Assembly: GCF_028641065.1 (NCBI RefSeq)
Contig: NC_073382.1
Span: forward strand, 26,474,001 to 26,538,000
DNA length: 64,000 nt
Source of the DNA: Leucoraja erinacea
Lineage: Eukaryota
Direction of reading: 5' to 3'
A model generated the notes under the pieces. That model had not been told where the DNA came from. It searched no databases and worked only from the letters and a program-made list of their open reading frames with translations. This document shows, in pieces, positions 9,912 to 57,898 of the stretch. The translations under genes were made by a program, and so were the position numbers. The number at the start of each line of letters is the position of its first letter. The stretch's first letter is position 1.

Positions 9912-10729
9912 GGGCGGCGCGACCGACGTCGCAGCGGCCTCTGCAGTCCGTCTTTTTTTTTTTGTCCCGTGAGGGTATAGTTTATAGTGGGTTTTTAAAT
10001 GTGTATGTGTGGGGGCGGGGGGTGGGTGGGGGAAACTTTTAAGTCTCTTCCCTGTACGGGGACCCGACCTTTTCCCTGTCGGGTCTCCATTGCCGTTGGG
10101 GCCTAGCACCGTGGAGCGGCCTCCAACTGGAACGACGGGTGCTCAAGTCATGGAGCCGGCGGAGCTGCGGACCTACCGTCGTGGAGCTGGCCGGGCTTCG
10201 GAGCGTGGAGAGCTGTGATGGCGCGCTGCTGCGACCCGACTCCGGTGGATGGTGACACCGGGAGCTCGCGGGTCCCCGGTGGGAGACTGCTTCACGGAGC
10301 ACCAGCAACAGCAACTTCTCCCGCCCGAATTGCGGGGTTGAAAGTGACCTGGAGCGGGGCCTTACATCGCCCGGCGTGGCTTAAACAGCCGCGGGACTTG
10401 CTAGCGCCCGCCTGGGGCTCCAACATCAAGACCCGGAGCAGGGCCTTACATCGCCCGGCGTGGCTTTAAATGGCCGCGGACTTGCTAGCGCCCGCCGGGG
10501 GCTTTGACTTTGACATCGGGAGAAGAATGGAGAGCAGGGGAGAGACAAGACTTTGTCTTCCATCACAGTGAGGAGGAGATTCACTGTGATGGATGTTTGT
10601 GTAAATTGTGTTGGTGTGTGTCTTGGTTCTTTTCTTGTATGGCTGCAGAAACCAAATTTCGTTTGAACCTCATGTGAGGTTCAAATGACAAATAAATGAT
10701 ATTGTATTGTATTGTATTGTATTGTATTG
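9912..10729 (+). mobile_element. GC-rich non-autonomous retroelement with internal ~80-bp duplication, two 3' hairpins and (TATTG)n tail, inserted in the CR1
   Basis: CR1 sequence resumes on both sides; imperfect TSD TTGGGT/TAGGGT; hairpins at 10560-10592 and 10662-10685; AATAAA before the microsatellite tail. Confidence 0.8.
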
Positions 10730-11394
10730 TAGGGTATCTTTTCAGTCAACTTTGGCCAGCTCCTCCCTCATGGCTCCGTAGTCCCCTTTTTTCAACGGTA
10801 ACACTGACACCTCTGATTTACCCATCTCCCTCTTCAATTGTAGATTAAACTTGGCCATATTATGGTCACTACCTCCTAATGGCTCCTTAACCTCAAGTTC
10901 CTTTATCAAATCCAGTTTGTTACATAACACCAAATCCAGAATTGCCTTCTCCCTGGTAGGTTCCAATACAAGCTGCTCTAAGAATCCATCACGGAGGCAC
11001 TCCACAAACTCCCTTTCTTGGGGTCCAGTATCAACCTGGTTTTCACAGTCTACCTGCATATTGAAATTTCCCATAACAACTGTACCATTACCTTTACTAC
11101 ATGCCAATTTTAACTCCTGATTCAACTTGTACCCTATATCCAGGCTACTGTTTGGGGGCCTGAAGATAAGTCCCATTAGGGATTTTTTACCCTTACAATT
11201 CCTTAGTTCTATTCATACTGACTCCACATCTCCTGTTTCAATGTCACCCCTTGCAAGGGACTGAATTTCATTCTTCACCAACAGAGCTACCCCACCCCCT
11301 CTGCCCACCTGTCTGTCTTTTTGATAGGAGGTATACCCTTGAATATTCAGTTCCCAGCCCTGGCCCACTTTATTTCTTATACTTTGCGCATTAA

Positions 11395-11650
11395 TATACA
11401 ATACAATACAATACAATACAAATTTATTATCATTTGAGCCCCAGTGAGACTCAAACGAAATGTTGTTTCCACAGCCATACAAACAAAGACACTGTCTTAC
11501 AGACATACACATAATTAAATTCACACAAACATCCATCACAGTGAAGCCACTGTGATGGAAGGCAAGTCTTTTCTCTCCCCTGTTCTCCGTGTCTCTCCCG
11601 ATGTCCAAGCCCCAGGCGGGCGATGATGAGTCCCACGGCCATTTTAGGTT
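11395..11650 (-). mobile_element. 5'-truncated copy of the GC-rich element family
   Basis: Reverse complement carries GACATCGGGAGAG, AAGACTTGCCTTCCATCACAGTG...CACTGTGATGGATGTTTG and a (TATTG)n tail; interrupts the CR1 endonuclease region. Confidence 0.75.
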
Positions 11651-13699
11651 CAACACTTTGACCTCGGTATTCACCTCCCCTCTAGCACTGCTCGCAATTG
11701 GCCCTGACCTTACTCTCTTATCCCTTCTCAAACTTTCCTTCCCATCAATCCGGGAGTCTTTTGTAACTTTTCCTGTACTCACTTTCCCTTCAACTCCATC
11801 TTTATACTCCCAATTTGTCATTATAGCATTGGTAATTTTTTATTAGCAATAAATTGGCTGTAATTAGCAGTATGGGAAAGATAACATACCGGGGAACATC
11901 ACTGCAGTGAAGCCATGGAGTCCACTTCTCAATGTGTTCAGAGAATACCTGATGTCCCTGCCAAGAGTCAATGGTTTTGTAAAGACAATAGCTGCAACAA
12001 AGACCATTCAACAAAGCTATTAATCAAGCAGCTAAAACCAACCAAATCAAAATATTCTGAATTCAACTGATTTTGAAATGGCAAGCAGACCAATTAGATC
12101 CAATTTAATTTAAATGGCAGATAGACACAAAAAGCTGGAGTAACTCAGCAGGACAAGCAGCATCTCTGGAGTGAAGGAATGGGTGACGTTTCGGGTCAAG
12201 ACACTTCATGGAATTCTCTTGGTTATGTACTGCTACCATGGCACAGATCCTGAACATCTGCCCTGGAATTTCATTTAAATAATGCATATATTTTAGACCA
12301 AATGTGATTGGTGTATGATCAGTGGGCACAAATTTACAAAATGTCAAATTACATAGCTTAATGCCAAATGCATAACGTGTCCTTGCATGGACACTGTTGG
12401 GATGCAAAATGGGTGCCATCTATCATGCATCCCAAATGATGCAACTGCTGAAATGCAATCTTGCAACAATGTAAAATACAGGTCTTGAACAGGAAATACT
12501 TAAAGGTACAAGGAATTCCCACCCAAGCATTAGCTAAAGGCATATTCCTTCCCTGAGCCCAACTGGACACCTTTGTGTCTCGTCAACGGGATACTGATTG
12601 GGGATGTTCAGCCATGATCACATTGAATGGCTCAAAGGGCCGAATGGCCTACTCCTGCACCTATTGTCTATTGTCTATTGTCTATTGTCAAACTCTGATC
12701 CCATAGCTATCCCCACCATTGCTACCAACCCAGATCAAGCATAAGAGAAGCAGGACGCTAATTTCATCTCCACACTGTGTGAAGCAAATCCACATATTAT
12801 TTCCAGTACTAGTTCATTTTGAGAGCCTTCACTTCAAGACTCGATTCATCGGGCGCCTCCCCAAGAGATTGAGCGCAGTGACTGGACGTGACCTGCAACG
12901 GCAGTGAGCGGTGGAGCAGCAGTGGAAAGCACCAACAACTTTGCTTGGCCAGGCCAACCCTACAATGCCACCAGAACCACGGACTTATATGGCCAGGTTA
13001 AGAACTCTGCACTTGGACTTGAAAATGGCACCAAAACCTTGCGACTCTTGTATACTGCCTCAGTGTAGCATCCCATTGCAGTTGTACTTAATCCAAGACT
13101 GTACAGATGCATAGTTATACTTTTACTGAACAGTATGCAAAAATCAATTTCACTGTACCTCGGAACATGTGACAATAAAATACCATTGAAACATTGAAAA
13201 TGCACAATAGTTTCTGAAACTAGTAGTGCATAACCACATTGAGGTGTCACAGAGAGTGCTATTTAATGTGTATCTCTTTGAAAGCAGAGCATCATGATAA
13301 TTGCTTCTCCGCCACCTCCTGCAGCTTCTTATCATTCTTTCTGTGTGGAATACAATTTCTAGCCTCTGACCTGTTTTCTCAAGCATCATAGCTGAATGTG
13401 TGTAAAATATTGCAAAGATTTTACAACACTGCAGCAATTTTAGTTCTTCCTCTCATCTCTTAAGAGAGAGAGACCCTCTAGTTCATAAGGTATACATTCA
13501 TAGCCCAAAGGACTATGAATTGACTTTACAAGCCTGACTGGCAAACAAAGACATCTACATTCGCTGGAGGAGGTTTAACTTTCTTATTTAGACTGCAGTT
13601 GAGCTCTCAGGAATAAGGGGACAATGTTTGATAGAATCATCCATGCCCAGGTATGTCATATTAATGCTGGCGAGATAAAGAATAAGCCTTCATTTATAG

Positions 13700-13890
13700 G
13701 TTGACAAAAATGCTGGAGAAACTCAGCGGGTGAGGCAGCATCTATGGAGCAAAGGAAATAGGCGACGTTTCGGGTCGAGACCCTTCTTCAGACTGATGTG
13801 GGGGTGAGAGAGGCAGGAAGAAGAAATGAACAGGCGGAGACAGTGGGCTGTGGGAGAGCTGGAAAGGGGAGGGGAAAGAAGGGAAAAAAA
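13700..13890 (-). mobile_element. Penelope-derived repeat with hammerhead-like core
   Basis: Minus strand CAGTCTGAAGAAGGGTCTCGACCCGAAACGTCGCC followed by the GATGCTGCC...CCCGCTGAGTTTCTCCAGC block. Confidence 0.75.
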
Positions 13891-14055
13891 TAAGCCTTTA
13901 TTTATACATCAACTTCAAATGCATTTTACTTGCATTGTTATTAATGCTGCAATGTATGTAAATCCAACAAAAATGTATACAAGGCCATACAATACAACAA
14001 ATTAATATTTAGACACAAGTAACTGCAGATGTTGGATTCTTGAGCAAAACACTAA

Positions 14056-14484
14056 ATGGCCTGTCCCACGAGCATGCGACTGCATGCAGCAAACGCGACC
14101 TAACGTGGGCGTTTGAGCCGTACGGCCTCACGGGGCCGGTCCTACTTCGATTGCCAGAGCCATATGGAGTTGTGCAGAGCTGGTCCCGACATCGCGCGGG
14201 GTTCCGAAAAACTGACATTGTCCAAAAATTCCGCGCGGCAACGGCCTGCCGGCCCGCAGCCACATTGAGGCCGTACGCACCGCCTCGACGGGCGTGCGCA
14301 GCGCCTCGACACTGTACGCAGCGTCTTAACGCCGTACGCAGCGTCTTGACGGCGTACGCCTAGCGCGAACTTCCCACGGACTTCGCTTGAACTTCACGTC
14401 GGGATCACTTGACCTCCGCATGGCCCCCGCTTCCGGTTTGGTTGCGGTTGCCGCCTGCAGTCGCATGCTCGTGGGACAGGCCCT
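14056..14484. mobile_element. MITE, PIF/Harbinger-like
   Basis: TIR GGCCTGTCCCACGAGCATGCGACTGCA and its reverse complement; TAA TSD at 14053-14055 and 14485-14487; CpG-rich interior; sits inside a Penelope-derived repeat. Confidence 0.88.
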
Positions 14485-14966
14485 TAAGTGCTAAAGGAAC
14501 TCAGTGGGCAGTCAGCATCTGTGGAGGAAATCAAAAGGCAGTGTTTCAGGTTGGTACACATACTCATACTGTTCACAATGGATATCCATGTGTAATTGAG
14601 AAAGAAATGTAATCCTGGACACCTCTTTCTTCTATATCAGTTTTGGCCGCATGACATTGATCCCAGCCAGTCACAGCTGCTGCTGAACTTCTCCAACAGA
14701 TAGCAATCTTTTTAACATTTCCCAGAAATATAATTTCAAATGATTTTGAGGCCCTAAAGCATTATTCAGACTCAGAAATGAGAGATCAAAGTTAACACCT
14801 AGGTGTTAATGGAGATGGTGCATTTTAGACAATAGGCTGTCTCAGAATGAACACCTGACATGGCCACTCCTGGACACGAGTGAATTTCCATTACTTTAAA
14901 TCCAATTCCCCTTCCTACATATAACGTTCAACCTGATCACAACATAACTAGTTTCCTCTCTCTCTC

Positions 14967-15652
14967 NNNNNNNNNNNNNNNNNNNNNNNNNNNNNNNNNN
15001 NNNNNNNNNNNNNNNNNNNNNNNNNNNNNNNNNNNNNNNNNNNNNNNNNNNNNNNNNNNNNNNNNNNNNNNNNNNNNNNNNNNNNNNNNNNNNNNNNNNN
15101 NNNNNNNNNNNNNNNNNNNNNNNNNNNNNNNNNNNNNNNNNNNNNNNNNNNNNNNNNNNNNNNNNNNNNNNNNNNNNNNNNNNNNNNNNNNNNNNNNNNN
15201 NNNNNNNNNNNNNNNNNNNNNNNNNNNNNNNNNNNNNNNNNNNNNNNNNNNNNNNNNNNNNNNNNNNNNNNNNNNNNNNNNNNNNNNNNNNNNNNNNNNN
15301 NNNNNNNNNNNNNNNNNNNNNNNNNNNNNNNNNNNNNNNNNNNNNNNNNNNNNNNNNNNNNNNNNNNNNNNNNNNNNNNNNNNNNNNNNNNNNNNNNNNN
15401 NNNNNNNNNNNNNNNNNNNNNNNNNNNNNNNNNNNNNNNNNNNNNNNNNNNNNNNNNNNNNNNNNNNNNNNNNNNNNNNNNNNNNNNNNNNNNNNNNNNN
15501 NNNNNNNNNNNNNNNNNNNNNNNNNNNNNNNNNNNNNNNNNNNNNNNNNNNNNNNNNNNNNNNNNNNNNNNNNNNNNNNNNNNNNNNNNNNNNNNNNNNN
15601 NNNNNNNNNNNNNNNNNNNNNNNNNNNNNNNNNNNNNNNNNNNNNNNNNNNN
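14967..15652. other. Assembly gap (N run)
   Basis: Run of N. Confidence 1.
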
Positions 15653-45033: not shown

Positions 45034-45552
45034 GGCGGTAGGCGGCCAGCTCCAGCATGTTCTGGCCTGTCCGCGTTTTTATTATTTTTTGTCTGTGTTT
45101 TTATGTAGTTTTTGTTATTTTATGTTGGGGTGTGTGAATCGCAACTGCCTGGAGACCCGAGGTAAGAGATTTGAAAACGAGGAGCAATAAAGCCCCTGGT
45201 GCCGACTCACCGTTGCCGTCGCGGAGCCCGACCGGGTGGGTGGAGCCGCTGCTGCTGCTGCCGATGCTGCTGCTGCTGATGCGAAGGCCACTAACTTTTC
45301 TGCGGACGGCGGCACACCGGAGCCCGCGGATAACAAAGGGAGAAAGCTTTTCGAAAGCGACTCCCGACAGGGTGAAGGCGGAGCGGGGCTAACACCACTG
45401 CCCCGCGCGGTACGGCGCCAACCCAAGATTGTCGCAACCCCGTGTTCAATGGCCGCGGGACAATCGCCATCGCCAGCCGGGGGCTTTGACTGACTCTGAC
45501 ATCGGGGGGGGGGAGAGTGGTGGAGAGATATTTTGGGCCTTCCATCACAGCT
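45034..45552 (+). mobile_element. GC-rich non-autonomous retroelement lacking its tail
   Basis: GGCCTGTCCGCGTTTTT head, GGGGCTTTGAC...TGACATCGGGGG...CCTTCCATCACAG as in 10495-10570. Confidence 0.7.
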
Positions 45553-49509: not shown

Positions 49510-49991
49510 AAGAACCCAAAGTGCTGGAGTAACTCAGTGGGTCAGGCATCTATCCATGTTCTGGAGGAGGAAAGAAAGTTGAAAGAGAGGAGAAGCTGAA
49601 CAAAGCATGGCAAGGAATAGGCTGACACAGGTGAGGGGGGGGGGGGGGGGGTGATATGCAGATGGTTGGAACAAAGGTCCGAGATAAAAGCAAAAGGTCT
49701 GAAACAGGATTAAAGAGTTGCAAACTGTGAAGCCAGAGGAACTGTGAAGGAATGAAGAGGTGGGGAAGGGAGAGGGAAGAATAAGGTGGGAGTCCGGGTG
49801 GGCACAGGGGAGGTGAGAGGGTTGAGAAAGGGGTGAGGGATGTGGAAGAGAAGGGAAGGGAGGGTGGAGGGTTGTTAGAGGTTACCTAATATGAAGACTT
49901 CAATGTTCATACCATTGGGTTGAAACTACCCAAGCGAAATATGAAGTGTTGTTACTCTAGTTTGCGTGTGGCCTCACTCTGGCAATGGAGG
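49510..49991 (-). mobile_element. Penelope-like element 3' fragment
   Basis: Minus-strand translation LHCQSEATRKLE*QHFIFRLGSFQPNGMNIE. Confidence 0.75.
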
Positions 49992-50680
49992 TTCTTGGTT
50001 CTTGGTTTCTTGGTCCTCCAAAATATTCCAAATAGAATTTAAACTGGAGGTGGTGAAGGGAAGGCTTAATCCAGAAAGGGTTATTGGGAAGAAAGAGCTA
50101 CTTTAAATGTAGTTGCATCTGGTTGGGTAACTATAGTAGGGTGGAGATTATTCCATGCTTTAATTGTGCGGGGGAAGAACAAATTGCTGTACACATCTGT
50201 CTTTGTAGCTGGGATCACAAATTGGATCAAATACCCTTGTCTGCTCCTAATTGGTTTGGGTTTGGTGTAGGTCTTGTAGTCTATGTCGAGCTGACCATTT
50301 AACATTTTGTAAAAACAGGTCAAACGGTGAGCTTCATGTCTGTCTTGGAGAGGGTTCCACCCCAAAGAATTCAGAAGTTTGGTGACACTCGCTTCTCTCT
50401 CATAGGTGTTAGTAACAAATCGAGCTGCCTGTCTTTGGACACGTTTGATGGAAGAAATGTTATTATTTGTGTATGGGTCCCATGCTGCAACTGTGTAGTC
50501 CAAATGAGGTCTAACGAGGGTGAAGTGTAGCTTCTCCTTGACAGAAGTTGAACAATGATGAAAGTTACGCCTCAAAAAGTTTAGGACACCTGTTGCTTTC
50601 ACCGTTGCATGATGAGTCTGACCATTCTAACGCAGATCATTCTGCAATTTGATGCCAAGATACTTGGTTTGTTTGGTGCC
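49992..50680 (-). mobile_element. 5'-truncated LINE of a CR1/L2-supergroup lineage distinct from the local CR1
   Basis: KYLGI, GVLNFLRRNF, LVRPHLDY...WDPY, RVQRQAARFV, LGWNPLQDR, FFPRTIKAWNNL; short 3' UTR and (CCAAGAA)n tail; 173-aa stretch without stops. Confidence 0.85.
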
Positions 50681-50823
50681 CCAGGAATTGAATAAAATAG
50701 GCATTGAATAGTTACCGGCCAGGAGATCAATCTGCAATCTTATTATTCCCATTTCTTGACACTTCTCCAAAGCCATCCAATTTATATTACTTTCTGTACT
50801 TGTCTAATTAATCAATTTCCCAG

Positions 50824-51446
50824 CCATGGCTAAAAATGGAGAGGCTATGACTTCAAAATGGGGTAAAATCTTCAGGGCTGCTGGGAGATTTGGTCAATTG
50901 GAATTGCTCTCTGCAGAGCTGGGACAAGCTGCGAAGAGGTGCTGGTGTGTCTGGAGTTTAGATACAATTTGCAAGCAGACTTTGCCGAGTTTTGATTGGA
51001 TGAGGCATTGAGCCTTGTCTGGGTTTCCTGTAGATCAGGGTAAATGTTTCTAAGTTGGCTTCCTTACGAAGTCCGTTTTGAATACAACGTATAGAGCTGT
51101 TGTATTATTGTGTTAGGGGAATGTTTGTTAAGTATGGGGTTAATCGATATCTGTAATTGGGTTATTAAGAGACCAACCCCATGTGGTTTGGCCCCTCGAG
51201 GTCCCGGGACATATAAAAGTACGCTACCATGAGGTTCAGCGTCGATCTTCTGGGAGAGCGCTTGGGACTGCTTGAAATTCTGGAGTGTCTCTGCCTGAGC
51301 AAGGCCTAGAGTACTTGAACAGGCAGAAACGAGGTACAGTAGTTGAACCGTAATGTGCTTTTGTTAAAATAAAATTTAGTTGTTTCAAGTGCTTGATTCT
51401 GTGTTTTTACTGAAACTAGAGGAAGCTTAGAAACGAGCAATTTACA
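50824..51446 (+). repeat. 5' LTR (5' terminus eroded, ~115-bp internal deletion)
   Basis: Aligns to 57140-57898; CATATAAAAG TATA near 51210; AATAAA near 51368; ends TTTACA. Confidence 0.88.
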
Positions 51447-51447
51447 T

Positions 51448-51465
51448 TGGGGGCTCGTCCGGGAT
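51448..51465 (+). promoter_or_regulatory. Primer-binding site, tRNA-Pro
   Basis: TGGGGGCTCGTCCGGGAT, the same 18-mer as the MLV tRNA-Pro PBS, one base after the LTR CA. Confidence 0.95.
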
Positions 51466-53420
51466 TTCAAAAGACCTCCAAACATGTTTGGAATCAAGGG
51501 TGTTGAGCTGCTTCGATCGCAAGTGCAGAAATCGGGCTCAAGGTGCAGTTTTAGCATTGATTTTCGGCACTTCGTTAGTCGGTGTAGATCGATCATTCAT
51601 GGGCTTGGGAAAGGGTCTAATCGAGATCATTAGAACAGAGTCTAGCAAGCACGGGGAGTACTTAGCATGGCTTTGTGTTAGGGGCCCATAAAAGCAGGGT
51701 GGGGTTAGAGGCCCTTTTCTGGGTTAGAGGCCCAAAACCTTGGTCGTAGTTGGCAGACTGCAGCTGCTTTAATGAGAGCCAAACGCGCTTCATCGGGCAA
51801 GGGGTGGCCCAGGGTTAGATTTGGTATCCAAATTGGTGGGGTATTAAAATACAGGTCTTGCCTTCAATCGGATCGTTGCCGGGAGCGCAAATTGAAAAGG
51901 TGTGTTCTGAAAATCGGCATCGATAACTCGCAGCGTGAAGCAGCTGGGCACTGGATCCTCAGTGCCCAGCAGAGAGAAGTGTCTGTGTGAAGGTATCTGT
52001 GTCTCTCCCTGAAGTGACAGACGAAGAGCCTCGAGAAGGTACTGGGCTTGGACAGACAGACTATAGATTGGCCGGAATACTCCAGTTCATTCAAGAATTT
52101 AACTGGGCAATTTTAGTTGATTCAAGAGCCCGCGTAGTAGAAGAGATACGCACTAAAATTAGGAGATCGAGTTCGAGTCTATAGTTGCAAAGCCAAATTT
52201 TCAAATAATGAATTTCATATTGGAATTCTGCCATTAAGGTGGAATTCGAATTCCTGTGTTTAGAACTTCGAAGTTGGTGCATGTCCGTGATCGATTACGA
52301 ATAGTGGCTGATCAACAGTGAATAGTAACCCTCTGGTCGATTGTTGATTAGTATCTGATAGCGAAGAGTACCTGAGAGACGGGAGCCTCCTTACTTGACG
52401 AAAAGTAATCCGAATAGCGAAGGGTACCCTTAATTCTGTCGAATTTAGAGAGGAGCGATAGAGGTCCCCCTTTAGAAGTCCAGTCTTGGCAGAGGGATAG
52501 TAACATTCGGGGGGGGGAGTAATTATTTAAGGAATAGTACCCCTCAGCAAAGAGTAAACTAGGAAGGGGAAAATCTTCGGTATCTGAGGGAGAGGTTCAC
52601 TGATAACAGCGTGACGCGGCGTTGAGATCGAGTGGTCATGAATTGTGCGCTAGTGCTTTAAATCATATTGTAAATTGTAAAAATCTAGCTTTTCGTATTG
52701 TCATAGGGTCAGGATTTTGTAAATATTCTGTGCATGTAAATAAACTTAGAGTATATTAAGAATTAAAAGTTATGATTTAGATCGTGTTAAATCCGCGGAC
52801 TGTCATTTGTGTTGCTGCTTGAGCGAGTGTTTACGGATTTAGAAACTTGAAGTAAGAGTGTGTTTAAGTTAGATATTTGTAATTGTTTAAGATTGTTTTG
52901 TAAGAATCTGAATCGGGGTGGTTCGATCATGGGTTGTACTCCTTCGACCCCTGCATTTGGGGAGGAGTCATCACGCTGATTGATTGCGCCACAAGGAAGA
53001 TTAATTAGAGGTGGGTGTACAGGATCATTATAGTTTATATTGGGGTGTGTTTTGGGTTATTGATAATCGGGGGAATATTTTTGTTCTTATTTATAGTTCT
53101 GTTAGCTTGGTTTGGGTTTGTCTGGCTGTGCAAACTTAAAGTGAATTGAGTGAGAGAGAGATTGCTGTGTGAGAGACTGCTAGTGGGACTTAGACTTGGA
53201 TTGAGATCCTTTGTTTGAAAGTTTGAATAATTGAATAGGAGTGACTGTGAGACAGTTGAAAGGAAGCGATTGCTAGAGTAAGTGTGAATCGGAAAGACCG
53301 TTGACCATTGTGTGGGAGAGATTCCATTGACCTTGGAGTCTGAGAGGAGGAGTGATTGAAAGAGGTGCTAGTGTCTGGAACCTTTATTTTGTAATTTGTG
53401 TTTTGACCATTGTTCCGAGA

Positions 53421-54870
53421 ATGGGGAATGTCTTTGAGAAGGATCGATCGAACCGTTTAGAAAGCCCGATAAGGATAATTTGAGGGGAGCTTCCAAATGA
53501 AGCAGATAGACCTGGAGGATTATCGGGGAAATTAAATGCAATTTTGAAAGACAAACTTTGGCCGTTGGGGGGACTAAAATCTTTAATAGGGATAAACTAT
53601 AAAGAGACGATCGTTAAAAAATATGGGAATAGTGAGGAAGTAAACAAGTTAATTGGGATGTGCAGGATATTCTTCACTAAAAGAAAAATAAACAAATAAA
53701 TAGTTTTGCTGTCCACCCTAAGAATGGCGGCTTGTAAATTGGGAATAGGAGAAAACGATAGAAATGTCTCAGGATATTTCAGAGTGGGGACAGGGAGAAT
53801 TAGTAAGCCAACAGCAGGAGCAGGAGAGAGTGTCATCTTTTCAAAGGGAGACTACTGAGACAGCACTTAAAGCGGAGGTGCCAACGAAGACTAAATCAGA
53901 TAAATTTGGTAAGAGTGAACCAGGGTCTGCACATCTTGAAGGGAGATATATTTATTATATGCCAGGGTGTGCAGAATTCTTCGGAGTGGAGCTAGAGCCA
54001 CAGTATTCCTCACCAAACACTCATGTTCTCAATTCGGAGAAACCATGCGCTGCCTGCGAGCAGGGCACATGGGAGGAGTCAGCGTTATCTTCGGCTCCTC
54101 CCCCTAAATTTAAATCTGAAATAGAGACATCGGGGAGAGATCTCTATCTCCTATGATTGCCCCACATGTGGAGGACAGTAGGGGTAATCAAGGAGCTAGA
54201 AGGAAGAATCCATCGACATGGGTACTGAAATTAATTAGGGATTCCAGTAGCAAGAGGATGAAAGAATCCTTCTTGAAGTACTGGGATAAAACAAATAGCC
54301 TTTCAGGGGGTGAGATAGGGGGAGAATGTAGATGGATTGATTTGGACATGGATAATATTATTATGTCAGAGCAATTCACGACGGAAGGGGATTTAGTAAG
54401 TAGACAATGTGTTTTTGTAGGGAGATGCCCTAATTTGGTATCAAATGTTTCCCAGACCACAGACAGTCAGACATCAAGGCAGCCTGGTTCAACGGCAGCC
54501 CGGAAATTAGAGGTTCAAATAAAATAAATAAGAACAAATGAGGAAAAGGAGGAAGAAGACCTCAAGGCCTGGATAGACCTCCCATTCAAAGAACCGACCT
54601 TTCCTCAGTTTGGCTGGTGAAGTTATAGAGCGCTCCGGCCTGATCAGTGTTACAGTTGTGGGGGATTGAGATACCTGAGTCAGTCGTTTCCTATGAGAGA
54701 ATATTATCAGGAAGGAAGGGGGCAGAGAAGGAGGCCATGGGATCACAAAAAGCGATGGATTCCAAGAGGGTACCGAGACTCTTGGAACCCCGAAGGTAGA
54801 GGACGAAAACACTGGCAGGGAGATCAGGGGGCAGGGACGTTCCAACAATCCAACCCATTTCGGTAGCCCT
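53421..54870 (+). pseudogene. gag: Disrupted gag-like region
   Basis: MGNVFEK...ESPIRII*GELPNE...KLWPLGG (Gly2 and a WPxxG matrix-like motif), later SAPPP and an Arg/Gly-rich segment (54666-54866); stops and frameshifts. Confidence 0.55.
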
Positions 54871-57115
54871 AACCTGCAATACCATCTATTAAAATTAAAG
54901 GCAGCCTCACTTGGCCTGAGAAACAGCATTATACATTAAAAAGAACACCACCCCTTCCAAGTAGGAGGAGATACATAGAATCCGACTCTCATAGAAACCT
55001 TCACTAAAAGGAAGAAACACGACAGGGAAACATAATAGCTAGCATGAGAAGGGATGGCAACTAAGGAATGGAAATGCCACTAGGGCGAGAAGAAACAAAC
55101 TTACCGTGCAGGAGGAATGGGAGTGGGGAAAGAAGATATTAAATTAATATGTTGCTGAGTTTGTGCCTGCAGGACAGTATATCGACGAGAGACTATCTGG
55201 GGAGTGAGGTAAAAGGATGCACAGACCCTTTAAGAATGGGAAGAAGACAGCAAAAGGTAATGTTGCTCCCCAGAAACAGGTGACCAGCAGGAAGAATTGA
55301 TACTGTCCTGCCCCTTTAAGACATTTGGGAGGGCCAGCAGGCAGAGCAATATGCTCCGCAGTATCCCCACTCCCTAGTAATTAAAAACTACCATCAGAAA
55401 GGAAGAAGAAAAAGACCTACCCAAGTGCCCAACTTTAATATCACCTAGCTATTGGTGAAAGAAAAGGAAGGAGAATAAAGGACATTTTAATCATCTTTGA
55501 AAGAAACAACACAGATGACTTTTGACGACTTCTAGGACAAGCCTCACTTTAAATAAAAAAACATTCCTCTGTGGTTTGGAGTAAAATACCTGAATTGTGT
55601 CTAAATTATGGGTATTAGAAATAAATTTAGACATTTCGGATTTGGTCTCGAAATTGTATGATGATGAATAGGAGGGACTTTAAACATATTTGAGATTTGG
55701 AATAGACTTGCGGAATCTGACTAAGGAATAATTGGAGTTTGATTATTAACTGACACTGTTATTATCTCGTCCTCAGAAAAGCAGACAAAGGTGGAAAGGA
55801 TTGTTTAAAGGGCATCAAGAAGGATGGAACTTGGGAAGATCTGGTAACGTGGAATTACTTGGGGAATATGAGAGTTAGAATTTGAATTGGGATTAAAACT
55901 GGAATTAAAATTGAAAATTAAAATGGGAATTGACATTGAAATTGGAGTGGAAGTGAAAATGGTGAAAAGAGGAACTATGAGCAGCAGGGCTACCCTTTAA
56001 GAAACCGGACTAAGGAATTATTCAGTCGTTAAGAACGAGTACAAGTAAGAACCCCTAAACAAAGAATGAAGCCAATAGAATAAAAGCGAGAACCCCAGAC
56101 AGAGAACGAAGCCAACATAGTTAAAAGCTAATAGAATAAAGAACCAACATAGTAGAGAATCAACATAGTAACGAGTTACCATAGTGAGGAGTGCATACAT
56201 AAATAGGAAGAGGTACTGAAGGAAAGACTTGGTAAACTGTAGGGATAAACATGAATTGTATTGAGAATAGCAGAGCCGATGCATATTTGCCCAATGGATT
56301 TGAATTGTTTAACCCTTGATGGTAAAGTGGCTTCTATTATCAAGGTGGAAAGAAATTGTCCCTGGATTTGGCATTCTTGATTGGATTTAGGATAAAATTG
56401 ATAATATTGGAAATTGATTGTTTAAATTTGAACAGCTGGGAATTCCACAGGAATTTGGAATGGAATTGTATTATCGGCTACAATGCTGTGGAATGCGAAG
56501 GATGAGATGGGCATTGAAATTTGAAACAGTAAATTGAAGGCTGAGACTGAATTTGGTTAAATTGGAACACATATCATGGTTTGCTTTAAATTTAAGTCAT
56601 GCATGTAGGGAAATCTGGACAGAACCCAGCTGAAATTGATATGATCACCTGTCATCGGATATACATATTATAAGGTCGTGTGAGTATGAAGAAGGCTAAT
56701 TAGGGACGATCCTAGAATAATTAAGAGTATATTAGGGAACAGAATAAGAATAGGGAATGTAATAGGTTTGAATAGGGATAGTATTGCGAATGTGTGGGAA
56801 AGCATGAGTGCATGATGGTAACTTGCTTAGCCCCAAGTTTAATGTCTAGGTTTTAGGTTCAATTGAGGAAGGTGATGGAAGACTGGGCAGTAACACGGAT
56901 GGAGGAGATTCGTGCCCACAAAAACTCGGGAGGTGAAGACTCCTCAGACAGAACTTGTGAAGTTATGCCCATGAAAACTCGGGGCGCTTGACAAGATTCT
57001 GGGAAGAAACATCATCATCTTGTGTTGCTAGATGGAAAATATAAAGCACACAAGTATATCTGGTTAGCTGATTGAGCCATTTTAGTTATCATAAATGATG
57101 TGTTATCATATATGA

Positions 57116-57129
57116 TAAAAAGGAAGGAA
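57116..57129 (+). promoter_or_regulatory. Polypurine tract
   Basis: AAAAAGGAAGGAA immediately before the TGTTAC start of the 3' LTR. Confidence 0.8.
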
Positions 57130-57898
57130 TGTTACTCCTGGCTAAATTGGAGAGGCTGGGAGTAAAATGGAGTAAAAGCTTCAGGGCTGCTGGGAGATTT
57201 GGTCAATTGGAATTGCTCTCTGTAGAGCTGGGGCAAGCTGCGAAGAGGTGCCAGTGTGTCTGGAGCTTAGATACAATTTGCAAGCAAAGAATGAGAACAT
57301 CTGCCAGCCCTGCTAATTAGGTGCAAAATGCATAGAATGGATTACATGGCTGCAAACCAGACATACACCTTGTAAATAATTGTAAATAATGTTGCAGAGT
57401 TCAACTTTGCTGAGTGTTGATTGGATGAGGTATTGAGCCCCGTCTGGGTTTCCGGTAGATCAGTGTAAATGTTTCTAAGTTGTCTTCCTTATGAAGTCCG
57501 TTTTGAATACAATGTATTGAGCTGTTGCATTATTGGGTTAGGGGATTGTCTGTTCTGTATGGGGTTAATTGATATCTGTAATTGGGTTATTAAGAGACCA
57601 CCCCTGTGGTTCGGCCCCTCGAGGTCCCAGGCCATATAAAAGTCCGCTACCACAAGGTTCAGAGTTGATCTTCTGGGAGAGTGCTTGGGACTGCGTGAAC
57701 GTCTGGAGTGTCTCTGTCTGAGCGAGGCCTAGAGGGCTTGAACAGGCAGACACGAGGATCAAACCCGCAGTGGGATAGGTGCAATAATTGAACTGTAATG
57801 CGCTTTTGTTAAAATAAAATTTAGTTGTTTCAAGTGCTTGATTCAATATTTTTTACTGAAACGAGTCTGGGGGGAAGCTTAGAAATGAACAATTTACA
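57130..57898 (+). repeat. 3' LTR (769 bp)
   Basis: TGTTAC...TTTACA termini, TATA (CATATAAAAG) near 57633, AATAAA near 57813. Confidence 0.92.

Follow-up and report, generated by a model that had tools for sequence, protein, structure and literature searches.

An old copy of a probably non-autonomous endogenous retrovirus with a single gag-like frame in the genome of the little skate

The element considered here occupies positions 50824-57898 of a 64,000-nt stretch of the Leucoraja erinacea genome (NC_073382.1, positions 26,474,001 to 26,538,000 of the forward strand; the whole stretch is referred to below as the window). With fairly high confidence, we interpret it as an old, dead member of a multi-copy long terminal repeat (LTR) family that possesses a tRNA-Pro primer-binding site (PBS) and a single gag-like frame, in which neither pol nor env could be detected, and which is likely a non-autonomous endogenous retrovirus (ERV) spread by the enzymes of a helper. 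A gag-only or otherwise non-autonomous lineage had been proposed in an initial annotation of this DNA, and the proposal is supported by the presence of the same layout in other copies and by the lack of a coding relic downstream of gag.

The retroviral signals, all on the forward strand, are as follows. The 5' LTR (50824-51446), whose outer approximately 9 nt are missing and whose final CA is present, carries TATAAAA at 51212 and AATAAA at 51368, and the complete 3' LTR (57130-57898; 769 nt, TG...CA) carries the same two signals at 57635 and 57813, both being thus kept in both LTRs. A single base separates the 5' LTR from an exact 18-nt PBS for tRNA-Pro (51448-51465, TGGGGGCTCGTCCGGGAT), identical to the murine leukemia virus (MLV) PBS probe given in the available text of PMC4587795, and a polypurine tract of 13 purines (57117-57129) directly precedes the 3' LTR. 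The two LTRs, the exact PBS, and the polypurine tract of the initial annotation are thus all in place. The further description of the cis signals as intact does not hold, as a 5'-truncated long interspersed nuclear element (LINE) has taken the place of the outer approximately 9 nt of the 5' LTR, TG end included, the same LTR has suffered deletions of 116, 22, and 6 nt (the 116- and 22-nt blocks are present in the 3' LTR and in a solo LTR elsewhere in the window), and the copy is without a target-site duplication (TSD). The LTRs agree at 558 of 624 aligned positions (89%; Kimura two-parameter distance, K2P, of 0.115). Absolute dating of the insertion from this distance was tried and rejected: the rate assumed in PMC4422223 translates into approximately 260 million years and a jawless-fish rate of 1.5e-9 (PMC10699275) into approximately 38 million years, as far as the available text of these papers goes, and only the term "old" is safe. 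No tRNA genes were found within the window, and a search of Rfam returned no match.

The only recognizable coding relic of the interior is the gag-like frame (53421-54866; 481 codons, with its ATG at 53421 and its terminal TAG at 54864-54866), broken, as the initial annotation had it, by four internal stops and two frame breaks. Coding relics were scored by the minimum number of breaks with which a region can be traversed, in comparison with dinucleotide shuffles, the neighboring LINE serving as the control, and the gag-like frame needs eight breaks versus 18.7 +/- 2.3 in the shuffles, none of 300 being as low. When one read-through frame of 1,200 codons was compared with 1.84 billion proteins using phmmer, three matches resulted, all within the gag part. 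Two of these (P0002 and P0003) are short, unnamed pieces, and in P0002 the start of the linker is joined straight to the segment that follows it, making it an internal gag deletion variant. The third, P0001 (XP_055498707.1), an uncharacterized predicted protein of L. erinacea (little skate), is the only named homolog, in line with the chondrichthyan host proposed initially; it is 45% identical to the frame in the window over 265 columns, collinear in one frame, and it ends at the same terminal stop. The best PDB match of P0001 is the MLV nucleocapsid NCp10 (E value of 0.0034), pointing to a weak knuckle, while its Pfam zf-CCHC match (E value of 0.043) is below the cut-off; the knuckle is incomplete in both P0001 and the window copy. 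The layout comprises a start that we take to be matrix-like from its position and the MG beginning, a linker, a segment of approximately 150 amino acids at the place of the capsid, a degenerate single knuckle near 54648, and an Arg/Gly-rich tail. The distance from the proline-rich linker to the knuckle is approximately 150-175 residues in P0001 and the window copy, and the space for a capsid, which in gammaretroviruses comprises approximately 260 residues, is by this measure short. Simulated neutral decay over half of the LTR distance gives an expectation of 3.55 stops, versus four seen, suggesting that this copy probably had an open frame at the time of its insertion. The open frame of P0001 (313 codons) was also considered as proof of selection and rejected, as the chance of such a frame is 1-10% per copy at 6-12% decay, and copies are many.

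From the gag stop to the 3' LTR there are 2,263 nt (61% purine), too little for pol plus env. Most of this is a 3' segment without coding capacity (54867-57116), found in other copies too, with short tandem repeats rich in A (55885-55944 and 56058-56178) and a structured end, the last approximately 250 nt before the 3' LTR folding with a z of -4.6 (picked from a scan of 40 windows). The earlier observation that this purine-rich part of about 2.2 kb holds no pol or env motifs is borne out by a six-frame regular-expression scan, in which no credible protease, reverse transcriptase (RT), integrase, or env motifs were found, the sole returns being chance matches and a single DSG triplet at 56995. 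Likewise, Pfam gave a single junk match for the six read-through frames, phmmer no match in the one frame covered, and PDB no match in three frames. The frame-relic score is 42 versus 39.4 +/- 3.4 on the forward strand and 23 versus 22.9 +/- 3.0 on the reverse strand, with no relic in any of three sub-parts. As the segment is of the same age as gag, the lack of a relic suggests that it was likely non-coding already by the time the element was copied.

These data bear on whether the post-gag segment might be a pol or env gene that decay has made unrecognizable, a possibility we regard as very unlikely. The profile searches missed the decayed gag frame too, and the stretch of some 25 codons that continues the frame beyond the gag TAG (54867-54945) may loosely resemble the start of a retroviral RT, with no match in PDB. 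However, a gag of the same age keeps a strong frame signal and the post-gag segment keeps none, the segment is too short, and it matches nothing in the databases searched; moreover, a very old remnant whose coding capacity had been lost before the family spread would still be a non-autonomous element.

Other copies of the element are represented in sequencing data. In a run index, 20 of 24 rows, from eight organisms, hold part of the element (shares of 0.05-0.45), so the family seems widespread. No RNA run is among the rows listed as holding it. For contig mapping, four DNA runs of four organisms were used, with the element divided into 30 bins; 32 contig pieces are listed individually, and there are a further 79,935. 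All 30 bins are covered in all four runs. In run X1, the summed depth is 797-2,081 in the gag bins, 2,204-2,686 in the bins of 54907-55990, 10,552-15,375 in those of 56262-57074, and approximately 30,000-55,000 in the LTR bins, with listed single contigs at 10-36, and this pattern, of a post-gag depth at least about that of gag and of far deeper ends and LTRs, is repeated in the other three runs. On a loose reading, the depths suggest that interiors number in the tens and that LTRs are far more numerous. Two of the 32 pieces listed (records 22 and 23 of X6) cross the gag stop collinearly, at approximately 94% and 87% identity, and other listed pieces, at 87-90% identity, tile most of the post-gag segment, indicating that the pol-less layout is common to other copies. 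Sites of difference in X1 are covered by 2-37 contigs each, with the minimum near the tandem repeats at 55977-56027. In addition, one X3 contig crosses the junction between the 3' LTR and its flank with four differences, and organism B thus has the same insertion.

A one-off deletion of pol and env from an autonomous copy after its insertion had been named beforehand as the case that would overturn a gag-only lineage, and it was not seen: the post-gag depth is at least about that of gag in the four runs, and two of the 32 listed pieces cross the gag stop. The idea draws some support from the deletions in the 5' LTR, from deletion joints in other copies, including P0002, and from the greater depth, several times that of gag, of the last 0.8 kb and of part of the leader, which may point to other layouts with the same ends. 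As other copies run collinearly over the gag stop and through most of the post-gag sequence at 87-95% identity, and as the segment that remains has no coding relic, the idea is largely refuted and keeps very little probability.

Between the PBS and the gag-like frame lies a non-coding leader of 1,955 nt (51466-53420) with ten upstream ATGs and no frame relic (31 breaks versus 28.9 +/- 3.0 in shuffles), the measured length agreeing with the roughly 2 kb given initially. A candidate dimerization or packaging signal is a predicted GC-rich hairpin of 12 bp at 51943-51970, capped by the palindrome GGATCC; the fold of 51840-51990, the best of 40 windows scanned, has a z of -3.6, and none of 200 shuffles was as stable. 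Two other features were observed in this part. The CpG observed/expected ratio is approximately 1.0 in 52001-53000, versus ratios of 0.4-0.5 for gag and for the 3' segment. In each of the four runs, contig depth over 52197-52738 of the leader and over 56262-57074 of the 3' segment exceeds that of gag several-fold.

Outside the ERV, the sequence that abuts and clips the 5' LTR (49990-50823, reverse strand) is a 5'-truncated LINE that retains the C-terminal part of an RT and a microsatellite tail, a label we take from RT-like motifs. It possesses a stop-free frame of 181 amino acids (50081-50626), a tandem tail (49990-50014), and very high contig depth, and its frame-relic score is 3 breaks versus 8.8 in shuffles (1 of 300 as low); the frame has no match in Pfam. 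The solo LTR of the window (3594-2485, reverse strand; TG...CA ends) shares only 73-76% identity with the 3' LTR and thus represents a divergent subfamily. The 4-bp TSD noted initially stands for this solo LTR, which is flanked by CAAT, and not for the 50824-57898 copy. Within the solo LTR, at 3161-2813, there is an element of approximately 350 nt that inserted later, ends in a tail of hexamer repeats, and appears to be accompanied by a short duplication. Elsewhere in the window, a CpG-rich stretch at 45200-45500 contains an alanine-rich open frame on the forward strand.

A number of observations weigh against the interpretation of a helper-dependent gag-only ERV. As to the family, summed depths cannot be read as copy numbers, and contigs show presence and not absence; no contig among the pieces listed spans the whole element, and a second full-length copy was not seen among them. 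Matching apparently ends at 56669 in two listed pieces from two organisms (record 24 of X6 and record 32 of X7), with approximately 190 unaligned letters following, and this break appears to be a structural variant of the 3' segment; deletion joints are also found in the gag and leader of other copies. The deeper parts of the leader and the 3' segment may be conserved cis elements, or ends common to other, commoner layouts, possibly including that of the helper. As to the proteins, the blanks in Pfam and PDB are weak evidence for decayed frames, the gag frame of the window having been missed too. No capsid was recognized in Pfam, PDB, or ESM Atlas searches of the gag-like proteins: the window frame matches nothing in Pfam or PDB, a gag profile of three sequences reaches an E value of 0.11 at best against PDB, and ESM Atlas gave no usable match for P0001 or P0003. 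Fold models of the gag-like protein are unusable (pLDDT, the predicted local distance difference test, of 34-38; 34 for AlphaFold of P0001 without an alignment), and in a word-based homolog search the window frame matched none of 3,733 candidates and P0001 only itself among 786. The identification of the frame as gag is thus drawn from its position, a beginning with MG, one weak knuckle, and motif resemblance. As to the helper, none was found among 970 longer proteins in the word-based search with P0001 and none was confirmed in scans of metagenome and viral contigs, these searches being weak for a fish ERV. Finally, the 50824-57898 copy has no TSD matching the right flank, missing because the LINE clipped the 5' LTR.

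The absence of a TSD and of a visible helper would also fit copies made by host-level duplication or by LINE-type processing, with no retroviral enzymes acting in trans. Against this stand the two full-type LTRs, the exact PBS, and the polypurine tract, the solo LTR with its TG...CA ends and 4-bp TSD, and the fact that the copies are 85-95% alike, about the LTR-LTR distance, and we give such an origin scant probability. That the LTRs stem from different proviruses joined by recombination, making both layout and LTR age misleading here, would accord with the 11% difference, the three indels, and the missing TSD, but is very unlikely given that the gag stop count fits the LTR-derived age, that the LINE explains the missing TSD, and that the interior is collinear with other copies.

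The helper-dependent ERV would have spread as follows. Transcription from the LTR would yield a full-length RNA, to be packaged in helper particles via the leader structure; the RT of the helper would be primed on tRNA-Pro and the polypurine tract, and its integrase would insert the element with a 4-bp duplication, as on the solo LTR. The gag-like frame would still have been open in the copying lineage, decaying after insertion, and the LINE clipped the 5' LTR afterwards. A PBS for tRNA-Pro is typical of, and not exclusive to, MLV-like class I ERVs, and 4 bp is the usual TSD length for class I-like ERVs. The PBS, the TSD of the solo LTR, and the knuckle together suggest class I (gamma/epsilon-like) membership, for an element that has no pol for placement by RT. 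A more speculative proposal, which we consider rather doubtful, is that of a Gag with matrix and nucleocapsid ends, its capsid mostly or wholly lost, selected as a cis adaptor that loads the RNA of the element itself into helper particles. If true, a vertebrate ERV would here have a "hitch-hiker Gag" devoid of capsid, and a short, capsid-poor Gag kept by selection would offer a natural opportunity to test what makes non-autonomous ERVs retain an open reading frame (ORF).

No description of this skate family was found in the literature searched, with subscription journals, Dfam, and Repbase outside the search. A family with no pol would escape the Pol-based surveys of ERVs in cartilaginous fish (PMC4422223, PMC10699275, in their available parts). 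Epsilon-like ERVs are reported in cartilaginous fish in the available portions of two reviews (PMC4977317, PMC6001957), and the CmiERVs of the elephant shark, as described in the accessible text of PMC4422223, resemble the skate element in being old ERVs of a cartilaginous fish, two of the lineages being epsilon-like; unlike it, they are complete viruses, defined by Pol and a downstream Env.

The kind of element in question is better described than the initial annotation held ("sparsely described"), with BHIKHARI, ENS-1, MaLR, and VL30 as examples. One example from mammals is the mouse VL30, which, according to the available text of PMC4859993 and PMC6466679, is class I, non-autonomous, 5-6 kb in length, without env, in some copies associated with tRNA-Pro, and mobilized by MLV as a helper. 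VL30 differs in its rodent host and in retaining remnants of gag and pol that are full of stops and contain no ORF, whereas the skate element has no pol relic, a gag-like frame seemingly open during copying, and a homolog in skate. Another example is the mouse IAP 1-delta-1 (PMC6466679, in its available part), also deleted and non-autonomous and also maintaining a shortened ORF, which acts in cis there, and it serves as the model for reading the skate Gag as a cis adaptor; in contrast to the skate element, it is class II, its ORF is a gag-pol fusion, and its role in cis has been experimentally tested.

The closest parallels come from zebrafish and chicken, as presented in the available text of PMC12067270. 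BHIKHARI Bik-1 and Bik-2 of zebrafish have gag and lack both pol and env, and they share with the skate element a single gag ORF, complementation in trans (which in the skate would follow from the layout), no helper identified in either case, and many solo LTRs, as in the skate family. BHIKHARI is lokiretrovirus-related, young, and polymorphic, with an intact Gag of 617 amino acids, of the type with a coiled coil at the N terminus, a predicted capsid, and a demonstrated developmental role, whereas the skate copy is old and broken, with a Pro PBS, an MLV nucleocapsid-like knuckle, and no recognized capsid; no Bik sequence is among the three phmmer matches, the knuckle points away from BHIKHARI, and the likeness is one of descriptions. 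ENS-1/ERNI of chicken is likewise non-autonomous with only a Gag-like ORF, and it differs in belonging to a sister clade of ERV-L, in being very young, in having an autonomous partner (ENS-3/Soprano), and in its predicted capsid fold (PMC12067270). By analogy, the skate element would work like BHIKHARI and ENS-1, a likeness of manner and not of demonstrated membership in either. Gag-only ERVs are thus already known from zebrafish and chicken, the locus described here is a dead, old copy of such an element, and with it gag-only ERVs would be extended to a class I-like lineage in skates.

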